DNA from: Polyangiales bacterium
GTDB lineage: Bacteria; Myxococcota_A; Polyangia; Polyangiales; Ga0077539
Length of the DNA: 64,000 nucleotides
Reading direction: 5' to 3'
Assembly: GCA_044229975.1 (NCBI GenBank)
Contig: JBGARZ010000004.1
Location: forward strand, 256,001-320,000
Shown: positions 24,428-38,260 of the stretch, in pieces
Layout: each line of letters starts with the position of its first letter
Numbering within the stretch: position 1 is the first letter of the stretch
Made by a program: the position numbers and the translations under genes
Notes under the pieces: generated by a model
Seen by the model: the letters and a program-made list of their open reading frames with translations, nothing else
What the model was told of the DNA's origin: nothing
Databases searched by the model: none

Positions 24428-26872
24428 ATGAAGACCCTCCAGAGCCAGGAGCTCGTCACGCTGCGGATCATCGACGCCGGTCGCGAGATGGTCGTCGCGC
24501 TGGGCTCGACCCCGGTCGTGATCGGCCGGCATCCCGACAACGACGTCGTGCTGCAATCGCTCTGGGTGTCCGGGCGCCACTGCCGCGTCGAGGCCCACGA
24601 GAAGGGCCACCGCATCGTCGACGTGGGCTCGCGCAACGGCCTGCTCTTCAACGGGCAGCGCGTGACCGAGCAGGCGCTCGTCGACGGGGACGTCCTGCGC
24701 GTCGCCGACCCGACCACCGGGAGCGTGGTGACGCTCACCTACGTCAACCAGCTCTTCCCCCGCGTGGCGAAGGCCGCGACGGTGGCCTTCCACATCCCCG
24801 TCGCGCCGGGCTGTCCCCCGGTGACCATCGGCCGTACGGGCGCGGCCGTGGTGCTCGACAACCCCCAGGTGTCGGCGCTCCACGCCACCATCTCGTCGAG
24901 CGGCGCGACCCACATCCTCCACGACAACCGCTCGACCAACGGAACCTTCCTCAACGGCCGACGCGTCGTCGGCACCGCCTCACTCAAGCCGCGGGACGTC
25001 ATCCAGATCGGGCCGTTCAAGCTCCACTACGACGGCGAGCGCCTCGACTCGTACGACCAGCGCGGGGCCCTGCGCATCGACGCGACCACGCTGCGCCGCG
25101 AGGTCCCCGACTCCCGCGGAGCAGGAACCAAGGTCCTCCTCGACGACGTGTCGCTCTGCATCGACGCGTGCGAGTTCGTCGCGCTGGTGGGCGGTTCGGG
25201 CGCGGGCAAGTCGACGTTGATGATGGCGCTCTCGGGCTACCAGCCCGCCGACTCCGGCGAGGTGCGCGTCAACGGCGACGACTACTACCGCAACTTCGAC
25301 GCCTACCGCGCCGTGCTGGGCTACGTGCCACAGGACGACATCATCCATCGCATGCTGCCCGTCGACCGGGCCCTCGCCTACGCGGCGCGCTTGAAGCTCC
25401 CGTCGGACACCCTCGACTCGGAGATCGCCGCGCGGGTCGAGAAGGTGCTGGCTGCGGTCGAGATGAGCGCGCACCGCGACAAGCTCGTCGACCAGCTCTC
25501 CGGCGGTCAGCGCAAGCGGGTGTCCATCGCCGCGGAGCTGCTCATCGACCCGTCGCTGCTCTTCCTCGACGAGCCGACGTCGGGGCTCGACCCGGGTCTT
25601 GAGAAGAAGATGATGTTCACGCTGCGCCGCCTCGCCGACGGCGGGTGCACCGTGGTGCTGGTCACCCACGCCACCGCGAACATCACCCAGTGCGACCACG
25701 TGGTGTTCATGTCCGCGGGGCGGATGGTGTACTTCGGCCCGCCCGCCGAGGCGCTCGACTTCTTCCACGTCACCAGCGGCGACTTCGCGGACATCTACAC
25801 GAAGCTCGACGGCGTCGCCGACCCCGAGAGCGCGCTCATCCGCAAAGACCTCCGCGACGAGTACGCCCGCTGGGTCGAGCAGAACCCCGGCGCCGCGACG
25901 CGCCCGCACTACTCCGTGCTCTGGCAGATGCGCTACCTCCGCTCGGCGCAGCACCGGCGCTACGTGGTCGAGCGCCTCGCCCGCGCGCAGCAGGGCCCCG
26001 GCGTCGACCGCGCGAAGGCCATCGCGGCTCCCGCGACGCGCGCGCGGCACTCGCCGTTGAGGCAGTTCGGCATCCTCGCGCGGCGCTACATCGACCTGCT
26101 GGGCCAGGACCGTCGCAACCTCGCGCTGCTGCTCGCGCAGGCCCCGTTGATGGGCGCGCTGCTGGTGATGGTCTCACCCGCGACGGCGCTCTCTCCCGTC
26201 CGGGGCGACGCCACCGAGGCGCGCAAGCTGCTCTTCATGCTCTCGACCGTTGGGGTGTGGTTCGGGATCATCAACGCCGCGCGCGAGGTCTGCAAAGAGG
26301 CGACGATCTTGCGGCGTGAGCGCCTCGCCGACCTGCGCGTGGGGTCGTACGTGCTGTCGAAGGTGGCGGTGCTGGGCGCGCTGGTGCTCCTGCAGTCGGC
26401 GCTGCTGCTCACGGTGGTGAGCCTGTGGGTTCCGCTGCCGGCGCGGACGGTGGTGATCGACCCCGCGGTGGACTTCTACCTCACCACGGTGCTGTCCTCG
26501 GCGGCGGGCCTGGCGCTGGGGCTGCTGATCTCGGCGCTCGCGTCGACGCCCGACAAGGCGATGAGCGTGGTGCCGCTGGCGCTGGTGCCGCAGATCCTCT
26601 TCGCGGGGATGATCTTCGATCTGGAGGGCGCGACCACGGTGGCGTCGTGGTTCACGGTGAGCCGCTGGTCGATGGACGCCTTCGGCTCGCTCGCGGCCGT
26701 CAACGACCTGCCCGCGAAGGTCGGCGGGGTCAGCGTCGCGCGAATGGGGCTCGCCAACCTGCACTACGAGAGCACCGCGCAGCATGTGCTGAAGTGCTGG
26801 GCGATCCTCGCGGGCTACGCGACCGCGTGCGTGGGGCTCACGTGGGCGGTGCTCGTGCGGCGGCGTGAGTAG
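24428..26872 (+). CDS. FHA-FHA-ABC transporter (ATPase plus ABC-2 membrane domain, Rv1747-like)
   Basis: Two FHA domains; GGSGAGKST, LSGGQRKR, FLDEPTSGLD; C-terminal TM helices. Confidence 0.93.
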   Translation: MKTLQSQELVTLRIIDAGREMVVALGSTPVVIGRHPDNDVVLQSLWVSGRHCRVEAHEKGHRIVDVGSRNGLLFNGQRVTEQALVDGDVLRVADPTTGSVVTLTYVNQLFPRVAKAATVAFHIPVAPGCPPVTIGRTGAAVVLDNPQVSALHATISSSGATHILHDNRSTNGTFLNGRRVVGTASLKPRDVIQIGPFKLHYDGERLDSYDQRGALRIDATTLRREVPDSRGAGTKVLLDDVSLCIDACEFVALVGGSGAGKSTLMMALSGYQPADSGEVRVNGDDYYRNFDAYRAVLGYVPQDDIIHRMLPVDRALAYAARLKLPSDTLDSEIAARVEKVLAAVEMSAHRDKLVDQLSGGQRKRVSIAAELLIDPSLLFLDEPTSGLDPGLEKKMMFTLRRLADGGCTVVLVTHATANITQCDHVVFMSAGRMVYFGPPAEALDFFHVTSGDFADIYTKLDGVADPESALIRKDLRDEYARWVEQNPGAATRPHYSVLWQMRYLRSAQHRRYVVERLARAQQGPGVDRAKAIAAPATRARHSPLRQFGILARRYIDLLGQDRRNLALLLAQAPLMGALLVMVSPATALSPVRGDATEARKLLFMLSTVGVWFGIINAAREVCKEATILRRERLADLRVGSYVLSKVAVLGALVLLQSALLLTVVSLWVPLPARTVVIDPAVDFYLTTVLSSAAGLALGLLISALASTPDKAMSVVPLALVPQILFAGMIFDLEGATTVASWFTVSRWSMDAFGSLAAVNDLPAKVGGVSVARMGLANLHYESTAQHVLKCWAILAGYATACVGLTWAVLVRRRE

Positions 26873-26942
26873 TACCCCATCTGGAAGGGGCACCTCGACC
26901 CACGGGACGCACGGTGATACGACCGCCTCGAGGATCTCGGCA

Positions 26943-27377
26943 GTGCCCGCTCGCGACCGATTCCACGAGGCAGTGCGCCGCGCGCTTACCGCGGACGGCT
27001 GGACGATCACCCATGACCCGTATCGCCTGGTGTCTGGCCGCCGCAACCTCTACGTCGATCTCGGCGCCGAGCGCCTCATCGCTGCCGAGCGTGGAGTCAC
27101 GCGTGTCGCTGTGGAAGTGAAGACCTTCCAGGGGCTCTCAGACATCAGCGACCTTGAGCAGGCCGTCGGGCAACACGCGATCTACCGCATCCTCCTCGAT
27201 ACACAGGAACCCGCGCGCAAGCTCTTCCTTGGTGTCCCCGAGGAGGTGTGGAAGACGCTCTTCGTCGAGCCACTCGGCGCCGCGGTGCGTGAGCGCCTCC
27301 TCGATCGCATCGTGCGCTTCGACCCCCAACAGGAGAGGATCATCGAATGGATGCCCCCGCCGAGTGGCGAGACCTGA
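26943..27377 (+). CDS. xisH: XisH family protein
   Basis: PARDRFHEAVRRAL..DGWTITHDP, DLGAERLIAAE, AVEVKTF, AVGQ..IYR. Confidence 0.88.
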   Translation: MPARDRFHEAVRRALTADGWTITHDPYRLVSGRRNLYVDLGAERLIAAERGVTRVAVEVKTFQGLSDISDLEQAVGQHAIYRILLDTQEPARKLFLGVPEEVWKTLFVEPLGAAVRERLLDRIVRFDPQQERIIEWMPPPSGET

Positions 27378-27673
27378 TCGAGCGCCTGCTGCGCGAGCAC
27401 GCCCGCGACCCCGTGTCGCACGGCGCGATCGACCTCATGACCGTCGGCGACCGCGTCGGCGACCACTACCTGCTGATGGCCGTCGGGTGGGACGGCTACC
27501 AGCGCATCCACGCACCGCTGCTCCACCTCGACATTGCCGACGGCCGAATCTGGATACAGCACGACGGCACGGACACTGGCATCGCGGCGGAGCTGCTCGC
27601 GGCGGGCGTTCCGGGCCACCGCATCGTGCTCGCGTTCAAGCACCCGAGCCGGCGCAACGAGATCGCTGCCTGA
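27347..27673 (+). CDS. xisI: XisI family protein
   Basis: DHYLLM.VGW, HLDI.DG.IWIQHDGTD.GIA.EL..AGVP...IVLAF. Confidence 0.9.
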   Translation: MDAPAEWRDLIERLLREHARDPVSHGAIDLMTVGDRVGDHYLLMAVGWDGYQRIHAPLLHLDIADGRIWIQHDGTDTGIAAELLAAGVPGHRIVLAFKHPSRRNEIAA

Positions 27674-29169: not shown

Positions 29170-29757
29170 CTACGGGAGCTCGTCCGCGCGCTCGATGATG
29201 CGCCCGGCGAGCCCGTAGGCCACGGCCTCCTCGGCGCTCATCCAGTGGTTGCGCTCGGTGTCGCGGGCGATCTTCTCCTCGGTCTGCCCGGTGGCGCGCG
29301 CGAAGATGGCGTTGAGCCGCGCGCGCATCGCGATCACCTGCCGCGCCTCGATCTCGATGTCGGCGGCGGGGCCGCGGATGCCGCCGCTGGGTTCATGCAG
29401 CAGGAAGCGCGTGTTGGGCAGCGCGTAGCGGTTGCGCCGCTCACACGCCGCATAGATGAGGGCGCCCGCGCTGGCGACCCACCCGCTGCCGACGGCGTGC
29501 ACCTCCGGCCCGATGAAGCGGATCACGTCATGGAGCGAGTCGCCCGACTCCACGTGGCCGCCGGGCGAGTTGATGTACAGCCGGATGGGCTCCGGACCCG
29601 CGGCGGCGAGGGCGAGGAGCTGCGACGCGACGCGCTCGGCGAGGGCCGCCGTCACCTCACCGAACAAGAGCACGGTGCGCGCGGCGAAGAGGCGCTCCAG
29701 CGCGAGCGGACTGACGGCGGGCGGTGTGGCGGTCGGCGGGTCTTCGGTGGTGGGCAT
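29170..29757 (-). CDS. clpP: ATP-dependent Clp protease proteolytic subunit
   Basis: YINSPGG, VASAG (Ser), LLHEP (His), RDTERNHWMSAEEAVAYGL. Confidence 0.93.
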   Translation of the reverse strand: MPTTEDPPTATPPAVSPLALERLFAARTVLLFGEVTAALAERVASQLLALAAAGPEPIRLYINSPGGHVESGDSLHDVIRFIGPEVHAVGSGWVASAGALIYAACERRNRYALPNTRFLLHEPSGGIRGPAADIEIEARQVIAMRARLNAIFARATGQTEEKIARDTERNHWMSAEEAVAYGLAGRIIERADELP

Positions 29758-29894
29758 CACCGCATCTGTGCGCGATCGCGGGGCGGTGGGGCCATTGCCG
29801 GGACGCTCGATGATTTGTCCAAGGCTCTCGAACTGCGTCGGAGGATGGCGTGGCACTGGACGAGGGCCGCGGAGCGTCGACACTCTCCGACTCC

Positions 29895-30314
29895 ATGGAG
29901 ACGCGCCGTCGCAGCACCCGGGATCATCTGCAACTCGTTCCGCCCGTCGAAGCCCGCGCGCCCGATGAGGCCGTGCGTCGCGCCGTCGAGCTGATGAAGG
30001 GCGACCTCGCCGCCGCGTGGACGGTCACCTCGCTCGCGCGCCGCGTGGGGCTGTCGCGGCCGGTCTTCGCGCGCCGCTTCCGCGAGAGCGAAGGGGTGTC
30101 GCCCGGTCGCTACCTCGCGGCGCTGCGGCTCGACGAGGCCGCGCGGCTGCTGCGGGTGACGGACGACGGGCTCGCGGGCGTGGCGTCGCGCGTGGGCTAT
30201 GCGTCGGAGTTTGCGTTCAACCGGGCGTTCAAGCGGCACCACGGACAGGCGCCGGGTGTGTACCGCCGGGGCGCTCGCACGAGCGGGCCGATGGAGTTTC
30301 GCGCCGCGGCGTGA
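29895..30314 (+). CDS. AraC family transcriptional regulator (HTH domain only)
   Basis: WTVTSLARRVGLSR..FARRF; VA.RVGYASEFAFNRAFKR..G..PG.YR. Confidence 0.9.
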   Translation: METRRRSTRDHLQLVPPVEARAPDEAVRRAVELMKGDLAAAWTVTSLARRVGLSRPVFARRFRESEGVSPGRYLAALRLDEAARLLRVTDDGLAGVASRVGYASEFAFNRAFKRHHGQAPGVYRRGARTSGPMEFRAAA

Positions 30315-30417: not shown

Positions 30418-32100
30418 ATGACGTCCCCGTTTCGTCAGCGCCCCGACGAGGGCCCCGCGCTCACCACCGCCGACGCCGTCCACGACGCCATCCACCAGAT
30501 GGTGCGCCAGTTCGCCGACCCGATGGCGTGGCTGCGCGAGCTCGTCCAGAACGCCCTCGACGCCGACACCACCACCATCGACGTCCGCCTCGACTACCAG
30601 CCCGACCGCGCCAACGATCGCGGAACCCTCCTCGCCTCCGTCACCGACGACGGCCGCGGCATGGACCAGGACACCATCGAGCGCTGCCTCGTCGTCCTCT
30701 TCCGCTCCACCAAAGACCGCGACCCCGCCAAGATCGGGAAGTTCGGCGTCGGGTTCTTCTCGGTCTTCGGCGCCGGGCCTTCCGTCGTCACCGTCGACAC
30801 GGGCCGCGCAGGCGCCGCCGAGGGCCTGCGCCTCACCTTCCGCCCCGACTTCACCTACGAGCTCGAATCCGCCCCGCCCTCCCGCGGCACCACCGTCTCT
30901 CTCACGCTCACGCTCACCGCCGCCGGGGCCGACGCCTTCGCCGAGGCCGCCCACGCCGCCCTCTCCCGCTGGTGCCCGCACGTCGCCGCGCCCTTGCAGC
31001 TCCGCACCCACGGCATCCCTTCGGGCGATCGCGACGTCCGCATCGATCGCCCCTTCGACATCGACGGCGCCGTCACGCTCACCCACCGCGTCGACGCGCG
31101 CACCGTGCTCGCGCTCGCCGTCGACCCGGTCGCGCACGTAGCCTTCTACAACCGCGGCATCCTCCTCTACGAGACCGCCGAGAGCCCTCTCCCTGGCGTT
31201 CGCTGGAAGGTCGACGCGCACGACCTGCACCACACCGTCTCGCGCGACAACGTCCGTCGCGACGCCGCCTTCGACCGCGTCCAACAGCTCGCGGCCGATC
31301 TCGCCCGCACCGCTCTCCGCGAGCGCTTCGTCGCTGCCTTCGCCGCCGTCACCGAACGCTTTGCCGTCGCCCGCCACACCAGCTACGCGCTCCCCGACGC
31401 CGAGCTCCTCACCACCTTCGCGCGCCTCGCGCTCGTCGCCCCCTACAAGCTCAAGCCCGCCGAGGTCGCGTGGCCTCTCGCGCACCCGCTCGCGTCGTCG
31501 CCCGAGCGCAACACGGCCGTGCTCTCCACGGGCATCCTCCAGCGCCCCGATCGCCGCTGCACCCACGTCCTCTCCAACCTCACCGCTGCCCTCGCGCGCC
31601 GTGACGTCCCCGTCGTCGACCTCGGTCCTCCGGGGTCCACCGCCGACGCGCTGCTCACCCTCCTGCGCGCCCACCACCACGAAGACCGCGTCGCCGCCGT
31701 CGAGGCCCGCTACCTCCTCGCGCGCGTCGCGCCCGCCGACGACCGCGCCCGCAAGCTGCTCGACGCCGTGCGCCCGCTGCTCCCTGCGCTCGACCTGCGC
31801 GACGTCGCCCTCGGCACCATCGAGGGCTGCGGCGGGACGATGGCCTTCGCGTGTGTTCCACACGATGGGCGCACCACCGAGTGGCTGCTCGACGCCACGA
31901 AGGACGAACCCTTCGCGCTCGACGACGACCGCGCCCTGCTGCTCCACACCGCGCACCCGCGGGTGGTCTCCGCCATCGCCGCCGCGAAGGTCGACCCCGC
32001 CCTCGCCGCGCTCGCCCTGGTGCGCGCCATCGCCCTCGACGCGAAGGCCCTCGACGCGAAGCGCGATGTTGCGTTGTTCAGCCTGGGTCTTCCGTCGTGA
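30418..32100 (+). CDS. Hsp90-like GHKL ATPase
   Basis: LRELVQNALDA, DDGRGM, IGKFGVGFFSVF, GTTVSL; HTVSRDNV; C-terminal LLLHTAHPRV. Confidence 0.88.
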   Translation: MTSPFRQRPDEGPALTTADAVHDAIHQMVRQFADPMAWLRELVQNALDADTTTIDVRLDYQPDRANDRGTLLASVTDDGRGMDQDTIERCLVVLFRSTKDRDPAKIGKFGVGFFSVFGAGPSVVTVDTGRAGAAEGLRLTFRPDFTYELESAPPSRGTTVSLTLTLTAAGADAFAEAAHAALSRWCPHVAAPLQLRTHGIPSGDRDVRIDRPFDIDGAVTLTHRVDARTVLALAVDPVAHVAFYNRGILLYETAESPLPGVRWKVDAHDLHHTVSRDNVRRDAAFDRVQQLAADLARTALRERFVAAFAAVTERFAVARHTSYALPDAELLTTFARLALVAPYKLKPAEVAWPLAHPLASSPERNTAVLSTGILQRPDRRCTHVLSNLTAALARRDVPVVDLGPPGSTADALLTLLRAHHHEDRVAAVEARYLLARVAPADDRARKLLDAVRPLLPALDLRDVALGTIEGCGGTMAFACVPHDGRTTEWLLDATKDEPFALDDDRALLLHTAHPRVVSAIAAAKVDPALAALALVRAIALDAKALDAKRDVALFSLGLPS

Positions 32101-32118
32101 GACGACTCGCATCAGGTC

Positions 32119-32596
32119 GTTGCGCCCGGTCGCCGCGGGGTTTCAACCCTTTCGCCTCTACACATCCACAGCACCGGATTCCGCAAGGGAGCCGTCGGCC
32201 GAAGAGCGCCCACTGCGCGGTTGCGGACGGCCCGAAGACGGGCCTGCAACCGCTGAAGTGGGAGCCTGGAGCTGGGCGTCCCGCCTGCGCGGGACTTGCT
32301 GGCGGAGCGCCGAGCGCTCTGCGCTCGACGAGTGGAAGTAGGAGTTCACCGAACGGCTCGGGAGCGGACACCTTCACCCTCTCGACGGTCGCTCCAGCGA
32401 CCGGCGCCCCGCCAGGAAGTCCCGCGCAGGCGGGACGCCCATCTCCAGGCTCCCACTTCAGCGGTTGCAGGCCCGTCCGCGGGCCGTCCGCAACCGCGCA
32501 GTGGGCGCTCTTCCGCGGACGACTCCATCCGCAAAACGGGCGTCGCTCACTGTGTAGAAACGAAAAGGGTTTCAACCCGCGGCGGCCGGGCGCGAC
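32119..32596. repeat. Large inverted-repeat element (~190-bp arms), REP/MITE-like
   Basis: 32201-32312 is nearly identical to the reverse complement of 32402-32513; outer arms carry GGGTTTCAACCC. Confidence 0.9.
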
Positions 32597-32617
32597 GTCT
32601 TCCGAAGGGCCACCCCC

Positions 32618-35600
32618 ATGACCCAACGCAAGCTCCTCTCCCGCGGCACCGCCCTCGTCGACCCGCGCGCCGCCGTCGAGCGACTCCGCAGCTTCCAGCT
32701 CGCCGAGCCGCTGCTCTACGTGCTGGAGATCGTTCGCGCCGCGGTCGCCGGCGACGCCACCGCGGTCGATCTCTACAACGACGCCGACGACCTCATCCTC
32801 ACCTTCGACGGCGCCGCGCCCGCGGTCGACGACCTCGCGCACCTCCTCGATCACCTCTTCAGCACCGCCCAGCCCCGCCTCCGCCTGCTCGCCATCGCGG
32901 TCAACACCGCCCTCGGCTTCGGCCCGCGCCACGTCGACCTCTACACCACCCACGAGGCCCCGCCCGGCCAGTGCCACCGCGTGCGCTTCATCGTCGGCGC
33001 CACCCACGACCCCGACGCGCGCGTCCCCGCCGCCGTCGAGAGCGCCCGCACCGAGCTCGTCGCGCGCCCCACTGACCTGCCCGCTGAAGGCGTCCGCGTG
33101 CACCTGCGCGAGTCCTTCGGCATGCCCGTCGTGCGCGAGTGGTTCGCCCGCGACCCGGCCGAGACCATCCTCCTCCGCGATCGCCTCGTCGCGCTCCCCA
33201 TCCCGTTGCGCCGCGACGGCGTCGTCCTCGTCACCGGGCCCGCTGCACCGCCCCTCGTCGCCGTCGCCCTCGACCTCGGCAGTGATCTCCGCGGAACCCT
33301 CCAGCTCCTCCGCCCCAACCAGCCCAACCGGCTCGTTCTCTCCGAGCTCGGCGTCACCCTCGAAGAGCGCCCGCTCACGCCCGCCGTCGACGGCGTCCCG
33401 AGTCCTCCGCTGCGCCTCCACCTCGACGCGCGCTCGCTGCCCACCAACGCATCGCGCTCCCAGGTCGACCTCTCCGGCGGTCTCTCCCACGCCCTCCGCC
33501 GCGCCTGGAACCAACACCTCCCCGAGCTCCTCACCGCCGCCCACGCGCGCCTCGCGACGCCTGATCTCCCCGACGCCGAGCGCGTCGCCCTCCACGAGTC
33601 GCTGCTCGCGTGGCTCCACCACGGCCTCGGCAACGACTGGCCCGTTCGCAAGCTCCCATCGGGCCATGACCAGGACGTCGACCTCGGGCGCACCCCTTCG
33701 TCGACCGTCTACACCCTCGCGACGTGGCCACTCATCCCCACCGCCGCGGGTGGTCTCATCTCCCTCGCGGCCATTGCCGCGTCGACGTCGTCGCTGGTGT
33801 GGCGCGGCACCGAGGCGCTCCCCGTCGACATCGCCCCGTGGATCACCACCGTCCTCTGGTGTCCCCCCAACCGCCCACGCCTCGGTGCGCTGCTGTGGCC
33901 CCTCGACGCCAAGCCCGCCGACGCCGCCATCGAGGCCGCCCGCGAAGCCCACAAGCGCCGTCAGCGCTTCCTCGGTCTCACGCCTCGCGACACGCGCCTC
34001 GCGCCCTCCGACGACGTCGTGCTGCGCGCGCCCTTCGGCGACGCCTCCACCGACGACAACCCTTCCCTGCCCGTCACGCTGCCGGGGCTCCGCGGTGAGC
34101 TCGTTCTGCGCTCGCGCGGCCTCGGCGCACCGGGCCCGTTGCTGGTCACCGTCTTCGTCGAGCAGCGCCCGCTCACCACCGAGTCGCTCGACACCGCGGG
34201 CGTCCCGGCCGAAGTCGCCATCGAGGCGCCCGGCGTCATCGCCGACCGCGTCTTCCAGAGCATCGAACGCAACGCCTCCCTCACCGCCGCCCTGCGCGCC
34301 GTGAAGCTCGTGCTCGCCGAGGCCCTCGCGGTGCTCGCCGTCGACCTCGCGGGCGCGCTCTCTGTCACCGACCCGCGACGCCAGTGGTTCGGCCCCGAGC
34401 TCGACCATCTCCCTGGCGCCACCCGCCGCGCGATGGCCTCCGCCGTCTTCGACACGCTGCGCGCCTCCACCGAGGACGCCCGCGCCCAGCGCGAGCTCTG
34501 CGCCGATGTTCTTCAGCGCCACCCCGCGCTCGTCGAGCTCCCGCTGTGGCCCACCACCGACCCATCGACGCTGCTCTCCACGCGCGAGGTGATCGCCCTC
34601 GCGGTCTCCTTCGAACACGCCGTGCTGGTGAGCAACGCCGCGCGGGGCGTGCGCGCCGACGGTCGTCCCGTGCTGCTCCTCGACTCGACGGCGCAGCGCA
34701 AGCTGGCCGCGGTGCTCCCCGACGCCACGCGCTTCGTCAACGTGAGCAACACGCTGCCCACCAGGGTGAGCGAAGACCCCCGCTGGCTGGCGCCCACCGC
34801 CGACCGCCGCAGCGTCCCCTGGATCGTCACCTCCTCTGCGCACTCCCGCGTAGCGGTCTCTCCGGCGCCCTCCAGCAAGGACAGCTCGACCCTCGGCCAC
34901 TCGGGACAGGCCCTCGACGCCCGCAACCTCGCTGGTCGCTTCGGGCCGCTCCAGGTCGTCGTCGAGGACGACCGCCTCGTCGTCCCCGCGGGCGAAAAAT
35001 CCCCGCTGCTCCAGAGCATCCCGGACGACCTCAACGCCCTCGTCCACGCCGCCGAAATCGCTCTCGCCACGAGGCTCGCCCTCGCGTGGCAGGGCGACGA
35101 CGAGTCCCTCGACACCCTCAACGCCGACAGCGTGGCCCTCCGCAGCAACGCCTCCCGGCGCATGCTCCTGCACGCCTACGCGCACGTCATCATCCGTCCC
35201 GACGCGCCCGCCCTCCAGGCACTGCGCACGGCCCTCGCCGCGACGCCGCTGATCCCAGTGCGCTCCGTCGACGGCGTCGTCCGCGACGTCACCCCGACGG
35301 CCTTCCGCGCCCGCACCACCGACCTCCATCCGCGGGTGCTCCCCTACCTCGCCGAGGCGCCTGACCAGCTCGAAGGCGAGGACTTCACCCCGGTCATCGT
35401 GTCCGACCGCGAGATCCGCGCGCTCATCGAACGCTGCTTCGACCTTCGCCTCCGCTCGATGCACGAGCAGCTCCCCGCGCTGCGCGACGCCCGCGCCCGT
35501 CGCCTCGCTCGCGCCCGCCTCGCCGAGCGCCCACGCGTTCGCGCTGAGCACCTCGTCGGGCTCGCGGCCGCCTCCTCCGTCCGAACCCTCGCCCAGCAGG

Positions 35601-38260
35601 ACGCCGGAACCCTCCACGCCGCCATCGTCCGCGAGCCAGCGTCGGCGCGTGTGGAGGTCGTCGTCGACGGCGCGTTGGCCTTCGCGCTGGACGGCGCGGC
35701 GCTGCCCTTCCCCGTCGTCGGGCGCTTCGTCCCCGAGGACGACGCGGTGCTGACCACCTCCTTCGACGCGCTCTCCGACGCCGGCCGCAAGGCCTTCGAG
35801 TCGCTGCTGCGCGCGATGGTCTCGGTGCTGCTCGACGCGATGGTGGACGACGCGGCGGCGGCCACCGACGGCGCCGCGGCGCTGGCGCTGCGATGGGCGC
35901 TCGCCGAGGGGCCGAAGGGTCTCGCGCGGCACACCTCCCTGCGCGAGCGGCTGCGTGGCGTCGCGATGTGGCGGAGCCCATCGGGCGAGCGCATCTCCCT
36001 GAAGACGCTGACGCTCTTCTCGCCGCGGCCAGGGTTCTGTCGCCCGCGCACGACGCCGTGGGTCGTCGCGGCGGCGGGAGAGGAGCCCGACATCGCCGCG
36101 GTGGTGCTCGACGGCGCCGACGACCCGCGCGCCCTCGGAACGCTCGTCGGCGAAGCCTCCGTCGACCAGAGCGCGGAGATCGATCGGTCGCAGCGTCGGC
36201 GCTCGCTGCGGCTGGCGGGGGCGAAGCGGGTGGCGGTTCCGGGCGAGCCGGAGTGCGCGGCGTTGTCGGTGCGGGTGGAGGCGGCGGCGCCGAAGCTCGG
36301 GTTCGGCGAGCTGCGGCTGACGGACGGCGAGGCGGCGCTCACGCTGCGGGTGCACGCGCCGGGGAGCAGCGCGCGGGTGCTGACGATGCCCGCGCCCTTC
36401 GCGATGGCGGCGGCGCTGGCGTGCGTCGACCTCGACCTGACGGACATCGATCGATCGGTTCAGTCGCTGGAGCTGGGAACCCGCATGCTCGACCTCGCGC
36501 GCGGGCTCTTGCAGAGGGCCGCCGCGGCGGGCGAAGCCCTTCCGCCATGGAGCAACGCGGCGCTGCGCTGGATGCTGCTGACCACGCGCGGACTATCGGG
36601 CGCGGCGGTGGGTCGCGCGGTGTTTGCGGACACCGAGGGGAAGCCGATGTCGCTGGCGGACCTCGACGCGCAGGCGGCGCAGCACCGGGCGGTGGGCTAC
36701 TGCACGGCGGCGCCGGACGAGCCCTGCGCGCTGGCCGAGCCGGGTGTGCGTGCGGTGGTGCTGACGACGCGCGAAGTGGGCTGGCTGGAGACGCTGCGCA
36801 AGGGGCGTGACCTGACGGCGTGGGTGAAGGCGGCGCTGCGGGCGCTGGCGTGGGACCGCTCTCCCCCCGCGACGAAGATCGAGGCGCCGCTCGATGGTTC
36901 GCTGGGCGTACGACTGCGGTGTCCATTGAAGGAGCCCGGGGCGGAGGGCGAGGTGTACTGGCTCGACGACCGCGCGGCGCCCGTGAGCACGGTGGCGTGG
37001 TACCGCGGCCGTCGGCGGCTGGGCGAGAGCGACCTGGCGCTGCCGTGGCCTGCGCGGATGGCGCTGGAGGCGCCGACGCTGACGCCCGACGCGACGCGGG
37101 CGGGGCCGGTGGACGACCTGGCGCTGGCGCAGGCGAGACAGCGTGCGACGACGCTGGCGCTGGCGGCGTTGCAGCGGGTGCTGGGCCCGACGGAGGCGGA
37201 GGCGCCGTGGGGCACGGTGGCGGCGCACAACGAGAAGAGCCCGGCGTATCGCGGTGGGATGGGGGCGATGACGGGCTGGCTATGGCTGCGTACGGACGCC
37301 GCGCCCGGAACGATCGAGCTGATGGTGGGCGATCGGTTGACGACGGTGAAGTCGCGGGCCGGGGGGAAGTACCCGTGTGACGCGCCGCTGATGGGTCGGC
37401 TGTGGGTGTGGCGCGGCGTCGAGGGGGCCGAGCGCACGGCGTTGCTGGAGGAGGTGGTGGGCTGGGCGTGGCGCCGGTTGCTGGATGCGTGGGTGACGAC
37501 GGCGCAGCGCGGGTCCATGGACGAGGGGGTGAGGGCGCTGCTGCTGACGCGCTCGGCGCTGGCGGGCGCGCTTGGTGGTGGCGCGATGAAGGACACGGCG
37601 CGCGGGCTCAAGCTCCCAGGGACGAAGACGACCTTCCAGCAGTTGCAGCAGGCGCGGAAGGACGACCGGAAGCTGCGGGTGGTTCCGGTCGGGGACGGGC
37701 GACTGGAGCGGCCGTACATGGTCGCGGCGGGGCGCTCGGCGTGGATGACGGTGCTGCACGACGCGGCGATGCTGGAGTACGACGACGGGCCGGCGGCGAC
37801 GATCGCGGTGGCCCCGACCGCGACGACGAAGGAGCCGCCGCGGGTGGAGGCGCCAGCGGCGAAGCCGCCGGAGGCGCCACCGCGCGAGACGGCGCGGACG
37901 GAGCCCGCGAAGAAGGTGAGCGCGGCGCGCGAGGCGGCGTGGCCGTGGGCGTCGCGGGTGGAGAGCGAGCTGCGCGCAATGGGCTTGCCCGCCGAGGCGC
38001 TGCACACGCTGGCGGGCGCGGAGTCGTCGCGGGGCGCGCGCGACGCGATGGTGGACTACCAGGCGGGCGCGCGGACGGCGCTGGTGCAGGTGAAGCACCC
38101 GGTGGTGGCGCGGTGGCTGACGGGCGATCCGCGGCGCGGGGCGACGCTGCTGGCGATGGCGGTGTACGGAGCGATCCGCAGAGAGCGCGACGACGTGTTG
38201 GCGACGGAGGAGTGCGCGGCGATGGACGCGGTGCTCGCGACGATCGCGGCGCGGGGGTGA
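32618..38260 (+). CDS. 1880-aa protein: degenerate GHKL N-domain, tandem Hsp90-middle-like modules, HtpG-like C-terminus
   Basis: Uninterrupted ORF; FQLAEPLLYVLEIVRAAV head, LPTNASRSQV, repeated PL.pT..G..SL motifs, terminal VQVKHPVV helices. Confidence 0.7.
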   Translation: MTQRKLLSRGTALVDPRAAVERLRSFQLAEPLLYVLEIVRAAVAGDATAVDLYNDADDLILTFDGAAPAVDDLAHLLDHLFSTAQPRLRLLAIAVNTALGFGPRHVDLYTTHEAPPGQCHRVRFIVGATHDPDARVPAAVESARTELVARPTDLPAEGVRVHLRESFGMPVVREWFARDPAETILLRDRLVALPIPLRRDGVVLVTGPAAPPLVAVALDLGSDLRGTLQLLRPNQPNRLVLSELGVTLEERPLTPAVDGVPSPPLRLHLDARSLPTNASRSQVDLSGGLSHALRRAWNQHLPELLTAAHARLATPDLPDAERVALHESLLAWLHHGLGNDWPVRKLPSGHDQDVDLGRTPSSTVYTLATWPLIPTAAGGLISLAAIAASTSSLVWRGTEALPVDIAPWITTVLWCPPNRPRLGALLWPLDAKPADAAIEAAREAHKRRQRFLGLTPRDTRLAPSDDVVLRAPFGDASTDDNPSLPVTLPGLRGELVLRSRGLGAPGPLLVTVFVEQRPLTTESLDTAGVPAEVAIEAPGVIADRVFQSIERNASLTAALRAVKLVLAEALAVLAVDLAGALSVTDPRRQWFGPELDHLPGATRRAMASAVFDTLRASTEDARAQRELCADVLQRHPALVELPLWPTTDPSTLLSTREVIALAVSFEHAVLVSNAARGVRADGRPVLLLDSTAQRKLAAVLPDATRFVNVSNTLPTRVSEDPRWLAPTADRRSVPWIVTSSAHSRVAVSPAPSSKDSSTLGHSGQALDARNLAGRFGPLQVVVEDDRLVVPAGEKSPLLQSIPDDLNALVHAAEIALATRLALAWQGDDESLDTLNADSVALRSNASRRMLLHAYAHVIIRPDAPALQALRTALAATPLIPVRSVDGVVRDVTPTAFRARTTDLHPRVLPYLAEAPDQLEGEDFTPVIVSDREIRALIERCFDLRLRSMHEQLPALRDARARRLARARLAERPRVRAEHLVGLAAASSVRTLAQQDAGTLHAAIVREPASARVEVVVDGALAFALDGAALPFPVVGRFVPEDDAVLTTSFDALSDAGRKAFESLLRAMVSVLLDAMVDDAAAATDGAAALALRWALAEGPKGLARHTSLRERLRGVAMWRSPSGERISLKTLTLFSPRPGFCRPRTTPWVVAAAGEEPDIAAVVLDGADDPRALGTLVGEASVDQSAEIDRSQRRRSLRLAGAKRVAVPGEPECAALSVRVEAAAPKLGFGELRLTDGEAALTLRVHAPGSSARVLTMPAPFAMAAALACVDLDLTDIDRSVQSLELGTRMLDLARGLLQRAAAAGEALPPWSNAALRWMLLTTRGLSGAAVGRAVFADTEGKPMSLADLDAQAAQHRAVGYCTAAPDEPCALAEPGVRAVVLTTREVGWLETLRKGRDLTAWVKAALRALAWDRSPPATKIEAPLDGSLGVRLRCPLKEPGAEGEVYWLDDRAAPVSTVAWYRGRRRLGESDLALPWPARMALEAPTLTPDATRAGPVDDLALAQARQRATTLALAALQRVLGPTEAEAPWGTVAAHNEKSPAYRGGMGAMTGWLWLRTDAAPGTIELMVGDRLTTVKSRAGGKYPCDAPLMGRLWVWRGVEGAERTALLEEVVGWAWRRLLDAWVTTAQRGSMDEGVRALLLTRSALAGALGGGAMKDTARGLKLPGTKTTFQQLQQARKDDRKLRVVPVGDGRLERPYMVAAGRSAWMTVLHDAAMLEYDDGPAATIAVAPTATTKEPPRVEAPAAKPPEAPPRETARTEPAKKVSAAREAAWPWASRVESELRAMGLPAEALHTLAGAESSRGARDAMVDYQAGARTALVQVKHPVVARWLTGDPRRGATLLAMAVYGAIRRERDDVLATEECAAMDAVLATIAARG

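Follow-up and report, generated by a model that had tools for sequence, protein, structure and literature searches.

A giant protein of probable Hsp90 descent, with a degenerate ATP site and seven predicted middle-domain modules, is encoded next to a small Hsp90-like ATPase in myxobacteria

What is a protein of 1880 residues, encoded by a single reading frame in a genome of 10 Mb, when the usual family libraries do not recognize it? The window (the whole stretch of DNA that was analysed, 64,000 nucleotides) carries such a gene. Scans of its product against Pfam, NCBIfam and PADLOC gave no family match, the Pfam HSP90 and NCBIfam HtpG models staying below their thresholds, and a sequence search of the PDB gave no match. 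As a lead only, the ESM Atlas returned Myxococcota clusters at 0.96–0.98 and an Hsp90 cluster at 0.88. An earlier note, made from the sequence, had proposed that the protein hides a periodicity of Hsp90 middle-domain-like modules. We now consider it almost certain that the giant protein is a paralog of Hsp90/HtpG, built of a degenerate ATPase head, seven predicted middle-domain modules, a linker and an Hsp90-like C-terminal domain, as follows.

32618 to 38260, plus strand: gene for the giant, a very probable Hsp90 paralog of 1880 aa, single ORF; AlphaFold halves with mean pLDDT 88.7 each
32618 to 33217, plus strand: degenerate GHKL head, aa 1–200 (HHalign 98% to the partner's ATPase domain; column counts)
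33239 to 33973, plus strand: predicted module M1, aa 208–452 (HHalign 42% to the HtpG middle domain, loop aligned)
34007 to 34813, plus strand: putative module M2, aa 464–732 (HHalign 96.1% to M3, 97.9% to M5, 98.4% to M6; same secondary-structure order)
34817 to 35524, plus strand: predicted module M3, aa 734–969 (fold match to the HtpG middle domain 2gq0)
35570 to 36217, plus strand: predicted module M4, aa 985–1200 (fold match to whole middle domains; missing in Sorangium homologs)
36260 to 36859, plus strand: putative module M5, aa 1215–1414 (HHalign 94.6% to M1, 96.3% to M4, 97.9% to M2; same secondary-structure order)
36899 to 37186, plus strand: predicted half module M6, aa 1428–1523 (S5-like sheet and long helix only, from secondary structure)
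37211 to 37783, plus strand: predicted module M7, the most divergent, aa 1532–1722 (same predicted secondary-structure order)
37784 to 37942, plus strand: Pro/Ala-rich disordered linker (pLDDT below 50 at aa 1724–1771)
37943 to 38260, plus strand: Hsp90-like C-terminal (dimerisation-type) domain, the last 105 residues (profile and fold matches)

The periodicity had been read from two recurring motifs, and all ten copies were located in the ORF 32618–38260 exactly where they had been claimed: a strand motif at 33287, 34088, 36302, 36944 and 37268, and a hairpin motif at 33725, 34538, 35243, 35966 and 36620. Regular-expression counts of the two motifs (5 and 4) exceeded the means of 2000 shuffles (0.53 and 0.07), a comparison that is not independent, since the patterns were written after the motifs had been seen. 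BLAST of the giant against itself detected no repeat, a DNA repeat search in the gene gave short GC-rich matches and nothing of module scale, and sequence identity between modules is 10–24%. Self-alignment by profile, the check that the earlier note had called for, placed all 15 pairs of M1–M6 in register with HHalign probabilities of 64–98%; the repeat was first seen with 19 sequences and then with an alignment of 68 full-length homologs, which include near-duplicates and 18 Sorangium sequences. With one side reversed, the same pairs reached at most 1.2%, and slices of the head or the C-terminal domain reached at most 2.2% against the modules; M7 reached at most 3.8% against the other modules by profile. 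Together with the repeated predicted structure, the in-register matches bear out the claimed periodicity, and the array spans ~33239–37783, slightly more than the range of 33280–37660 first given for it.

Modelled by AlphaFold as residues 1–975 and 976–1880 (mean pLDDT 88.7 each, pTM 0.57), the giant shows a repeated pattern of a five-stranded sheet, a long helix, helices, a hairpin, a small alpha/beta subdomain and a linking helix. M6 is modelled as sheet and helix only, and M7 with the full secondary-structure order. In a Foldseek search with the headless half (the note had called for one per module), all 40 matches listed were Hsp90-family structures, isolated middle domains included, and 22 had E values up to 0.001. 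In its main point the earlier proposal holds, the units being very probably tandem Hsp90 middle-domain modules, six of them full and one half. M4 matched whole middle domains of GRP94, HtpG and Hsp90 (Z up to 8.7, rmsd ~5–6 over ~190), model residues 716–950 (M3) matched the middle domain of HtpG taken alone (2gq0; Z 7.4, rmsd 6.5 over 209) and M6 matched TRAP1 297–429 (Z 8.4, rmsd 2.5 over 99), such single-module values of 7.4–8.7 being middling by the fold tool's own scale. M6 also matched the S5 domain of MORC3 at Z 10.4, and M7 with the C-terminal domain matched HtpG residues 233–624 at Z 8.0 but with an rmsd of 20.6. The head with M1 matched closed Hsp90 at Z 16–17, where the preference for closed forms may reflect AlphaFold's training set. 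It is the agreement on one family across the modules, together with the head–M1 match, that points to Hsp90 as the source of the modules. In none of the fold-search matches listed did M2 or M5 give the best-aligned stretch, and their assignment as putative modules comes from profile links.

Direct profile comparison with HtpG middle domains gave 42% for M1 and 18% for M6, and at most 0.4% for M2–M5 and M7, which are therefore tied to Hsp90 through M1, M6 and the models. The alignment of M1 to HtpG places the catalytic loop and the hairpin motif correctly; the hairpin falls on the HtpG 'L.F.ST...SL' motif, as had been suggested. The head gave fold matches to Hsp90 N-domains at Z 11.3–11.5, and a direct profile match to HtpG N-domains of 2.5% only. 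For the C-terminal domain, HHalign gave 52.5% to the HtpG C-domain, over 22 columns, and the fold match to the HtpG C-domain 1sf8 (Z 7.6) is tied with minimal zincin-like folds (Z 8.2); its position and the paralogy favour the Hsp90-like identity.

The number of modules varies among homologs. All seven are found in 48 of the 68 sequences, M4 alone is missing in 18, all from Sorangium, and two differ otherwise; the spacing from M3 to M5 is 23–60 aa in Sorangium against 215–293 aa elsewhere. To judge from these alignments, the module is a unit of evolution, with whole-module loss in Sorangium. A generic module HMM found 11 matches in a 2982-aa open frame of a distant locus (L188) and seven in three other distant proteins; only such matches outside the training set are counted, the seven in the window protein being circular. 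The same HMM gave at most one match per HtpG protein (12 of 28, up to 15.5 bits), and at most 5.5 bits in reversed controls. Frameshifts break the giant homologs of L040, L044 and L080, which were excluded from the alignments; these are probably sequencing errors.

Beyond the periodicity, two features of the locus had been overlooked: a degenerate ATP site in the head, and a gene for a partner ATPase directly upstream. The ATP-binding motifs of Hsp90 are known as ExxxN, DxGxG and GxxGxG. In the head of the giant, Glu37 is kept, the Asn is replaced by Ala41 and the adenine-binding Asp by Phe63, and the glycine box is lost. Glu37 is invariant in 68 of 68 giant homologs, the Asn position holds Ala, Val, Cys or Gly in 67 of 68 rows, and the Asp position holds Phe in 57, Trp in 10 and Leu in 1. 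Having lost its ATP-binding residues, the head is, on the face of these columns, a pseudo-ATPase. The same substitutions recur further afield: of 86 distant heads, 75 are aromatic where the Asp would be, and all lack the Asn, this second result being partly built in, as the heads were counted after active RE-x-x-QN rows had been dropped.

Conservation in the giant is concentrated at its N-terminal end, with a mean identity of 43% in the head and 33% in M1 against 23–27% in M2–M7. The loop Arg280 (codon at 33455) is kept in 67 of 68 giants. A catalytic-loop Arg is consistent in M1 only (25 of 25 M1 rows); the column is mostly aromatic in M2–M4 and M6, and unconserved or gapped in M5 and M7. There are few conserved columns in M2–M7, and so no conserved client site is evident there. 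Despite their conservation, residues 1–14 are disordered in the model of the monomer, which fits the expectation for a strand that is swapped between subunits.

The upstream gene encodes a smaller paralog of the giant.

30418 to 32100, plus strand: partner gene, 560-aa Hsp90/HtpG-like ATPase (Pfam HATPase_c_3, E 1.5e-11)

Its GHKL ATPase motifs are intact, and it has a single middle domain along with a C-terminal domain; residues E41, N45, D77, G79, G81, G107, G110, G112 and R276 are present in 51 of 51 homologs. In the PDB, the partner's profile finds its best sequence match in HtpG of E. coli (E 2e-18), and a further stretch matches over the middle and C-terminal parts. Its three parts align to the giant's head (HHalign 98%), M1 and M6 (86% and 91%) and C-terminal domain (49%). 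A canonical HtpG is also encoded in the same genome, as it is in other genomes that have the pair of giant and partner; in one genome (G056, 100% complete), the pair is present and a canonical HtpG was not found.

The two genes are closely coupled. The partner lies upstream of the giant in 56 of 60 loci, and three of the four others have fewer than 830 bases upstream; the genes overlap by the four bases ATGA in 41 of 51 loci, with starts taken as nearest-codon calls. Conversely, of 56 metagenome loci with enough sequence downstream of the partner, 54 carry a dead head there, one a weaker head and one a fusion of both genes. Among 401 genomes of the phylum, the giant occurs in 82 and the partner in 87, with the partner in 82 of 82 giant carriers and the giant in 82 of 87 partner carriers, kin among these loci and genomes not being independent. 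The giant is single-copy in nearly all carriers of the window's order. On one metagenome contig (L270:5350–10836), partner and dead-head giant form an in-frame fusion of 1829 aa, which could be real or an assembly error.

How do these proteins compare with known systems? In canonical Hsp90s two identical subunits pair, each with a single middle domain. With the Hsp90 family (HtpG, TRAP1, GRP94, Hsp82/Hsp90) the giant shares a GHKL N-domain, a two-subdomain middle domain with a catalytic-loop Arg, and probably the C-terminal domain, and its M1 loop aligns to the HtpG loop with an Arg of the yeast R380 type. It differs in that the ATP-binding residues are lost, the middle domain is predicted to be present seven times, and a separate active paralog stands alongside. 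Intact ATP motifs are found in the partner (51 of 51) and not in the giant, and the giant's middle domain is not single, so we do not file it as a canonical Hsp90; it is better described as Hsp90-derived, with a putative Hsp90-like mode of working.

The earlier label 'sacsin-like' fits loosely, in that the protein is very large and made of repeated Hsp90-derived units, while the repeat unit and the C-terminal domain differ. The accessory domains of sacsin are of the J, HEPN or UBL type. None of these was found in the giant by Pfam, and the models contain no unassigned folded region. Sacsin SR1 matches the giant's head at Z 9.6. As described in PMC9880540, sacsin repeats an N-terminal domain and a partial middle domain three times and has no homology to the Hsp90 C-terminal domain. 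In contrast to sacsin (SIRPT/SRR), the giant has one dead head, repeats only the middle domain and has at its end a C-terminal domain like that of Hsp90; no module gives a match to the head profile, and each protein has one head, which differs from a repeat of the N and M supradomain. A literature search, outside which lay subscription papers and supplements, found no paper on the giant's architecture.

The need for both ATP sites of Hsp90 has been studied with engineered heterodimers. Those with one live and one dead site (D79N, E33A) hydrolyse ATP at the live site, as reported in PMC9138868. They are laboratory mutants, whereas the asymmetry of the giant and its partner appears natural and conserved. 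If the two proteins do form a natural live/dead pair, it would test the role of the second ATP site and of the Glu–Arg latch, as well as how the size of the clamp relates to that of the client. The work also provides a predicted fold, and a hypothesis open to testing, for a family that is large and lacks annotation (726 representatives at 50% identity). Some of its members belong to myxobacteria that can be cultured, including Sorangium cellulosum So ce56, where the pair WP_012241108/WP_012241109 is labelled hypothetical and ATP-binding protein.

Our main reading, to which we give a probability of about one half, is that the giant supplies the ATP-dead half of a heteromeric Hsp90-type clamp, the small upstream ATPase being the other subunit. 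In such a clamp, the head of the giant would be fixed in an ATP-like, middle-domain-docked shape without nucleotide, held by the Glu37–Arg280 pair and by the aromatic residue that replaces the adenine-binding Asp. Once the small subunit has bound ATP, its N-domain could pair with the giant's head via the N-terminal strand that is conserved there; the C-terminal domains of the two would associate as in HtpG. The six extra modules would make up an extended arm and set the two subunits further apart, leaving room for a large protein or complex, which could be held in the clamp and let go once the one live site hydrolyses its ATP. We infer the locked head from the retention of the Glu–Arg pair and the N-terminal strand, with an aromatic residue at the adenine-binding position. 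For Hsp90 itself, PMC9138868 describes Arg380 as bridging the gamma-phosphate and Glu33, thereby docking the N and M domains, describes closure as involving a swap of N-terminal strands, and states that a wild-type site is not affected when its partner cannot bind ATP.

Several points count against the clamp. A one-module and a seven-module subunit could touch each other at either end only with the arm looped out, and the geometry of the arm is left unfixed by the monomer models (pTM 0.57). In addition, yeast wild-type:D79N heterodimers do not support viability, according to PMC5018835, so that a protomer dead for ATP binding fails in canonical Hsp90. Further points are the armless orphan heads of another phylum taken up below, the scarcity of conserved columns in M2–M7, the middling Z values of single modules and the canonical HtpG that the genome encodes as well. 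With a little less confidence than in the clamp, and at slightly under even odds, we would extend the idea to a natural, obligately asymmetric Hsp90, in which a small ATP motor works with exchangeable ATP-dead partners, their nucleotide-mimicking head serving as a docking plug. Gain or loss of whole middle domains (from none up to at least 11) would set the length of the arm, to give a modular clamp for very large clients apart from canonical HtpG.

The alternative that survives best, although we consider it unlikely, is that the small ATPase forms its own dimer, and that the giant belongs to a set of interchangeable partners, its dead head docking transiently on that dimer in the manner of a co-chaperone, the array being a spacer that reaches the target. 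The wider family provides much of its appeal. Among distant myxobacteria, a single active gene precedes between one and three dead-head genes, whose open frames measure 842–2982 aa; the active gene was seen in 17 of 20 fetched regions, and two or three dead-head genes follow a single active one at L172, L174, L175, L178 and L179. In the phylum of genome G737, 29 of 101 genomes match, many of them 8–9 times, against three active genes in G737, and no active gene was found near the dead heads in 20 of 20 fetched regions (L302–L321). About half of these 20 regions are reduced to a head and an S5 half, and many of the dead heads lack the arm, nor could a C-terminal domain be detected in them. They stand alone (~300–420 aa) or, in single cases among the 13 of 20 regions covered by the Pfam scan, carry tails of TPR (L321) or zinc-ribbon (L315) type. 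Armless orphan heads away from an active gene are easier to reconcile with a docking module than with a fixed clamp, and the variable number of modules (6 in Sorangium, 7 in the window, 11 in L188) would suit a spacer. However, in the window's order the giant is translationally coupled and single-copy in nearly all carriers, and its conserved Hsp90-like C-terminal domain points to a stoichiometric partner.

Could the pair instead be a conflict system, a nucleic-acid clamp of the MORC/MutL/Tiamat type with a defensive role, by which DNA or phage proteins are sensed or held? We regard such a GHKL machine as quite improbable. The best match of half module M6 is to MORC S5 domains (Z 10.4), the partner has weak matches to TmtA (Tiamat), confined to the ATPase region, the distribution is patchy (99 of 401 and 82 of 401 genomes), and outside the window's order another gene, of family A, co-occurs tightly with the partner. 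According to the preprint 10.64898/2026.09.30.754977, Tiamat combines a GHKL head, an S5-like fold and a long middle region, with an active ATPase, TPR-like repeats in the middle and a nuclease at the C-terminus. The giant has the GHKL head, the S5-like fold and a long middle region in common with Tiamat and MORC defence ATPases, but neither TPR-like repeats nor a C-terminal nuclease or other effector was detected in it. Scans with Pfam, NCBIfam and PADLOC found no nuclease or effector family in the giant, and none was found in 22 of 22 homologs scanned; these 22, dead-head proteins of distant loci, gave no Pfam family at all. Moreover, the second middle subdomain is present in the full modules, the C-terminal domain resembles that of Hsp90, the neighbours are lineage-specific genes kept across Sorangium loci, and none of five weak matches on viral contigs is a full-length relative of the partner.

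It is very unlikely that the giant works by itself as an ATP-independent homodimeric holdase or scaffold, with the operon reflecting co-regulation after duplication and nothing more. Its own putative dimerisation-type C-terminal domain and seven potential binding modules would equip it for this role, but the dead head and the N-terminal strand are its most conserved parts, and among 82 genomes it never occurs without the active gene. Finally, a protein rich in Ala, Arg and Leu, and GC-rich, might show the periodicity as an artefact of its composition, and the lack of a BLAST self-match and the low identities between modules (10–24%) might speak for this; the idea is effectively refuted by the reversed controls (at most 1.2%), the repeated structure predicted at pLDDT 88.7 and the clean deletion of one module in Sorangium.

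The window strain departs from its relatives in the junction between the two genes.

32101 to 32617, no strand: strain-specific nested palindromic insertion (MITE/REP-like), 517 bases between partner and giant

The insertion sits in the last codons of the partner gene, and six close relatives have the ATGA overlap in its place. Its arms lie at 32188–32318/32396–32526 and 32118–32164/32551–32597, and it folds at a z of -23. The inner element of ~309 bp occurs at 12 places in the genome, and the outer arms contain a 12-bp palindrome found 14 times. The insertion may uncouple the translation of partner and giant in this strain, and is not part of the conserved system. A consensus scan found no promoter-like site.

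Other genes accompany the pair in some lineages. In distant relatives, two genes were seen upstream of the ATPase, in 17 of 144 and 9 of 144 loci (for example, family A at L266:5770–6825 and family B at L191:2070–3176). Family A is present in 69 of the 401 genomes, all of them partner carriers: 69 of 72 partner carriers outside the window's order have it, and 0 of 15 inside. Neither family was found in the window's genome (93% complete). At L278:4363–7497, a related active GHKL ATPase is fused to a transglutaminase-like domain and followed by a weak dead-head gene. In the window, a ClpP-like protease gene (29170–29883, minus strand) and a stand-alone AraC-type HTH gene (29850–30314, plus strand) lie just upstream of the pair; both are absent from the recurrent neighbour clusters listed. 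Further upstream, a pair of XisH and XisI genes (26865–27673) follows an FHA–ABC transporter gene.
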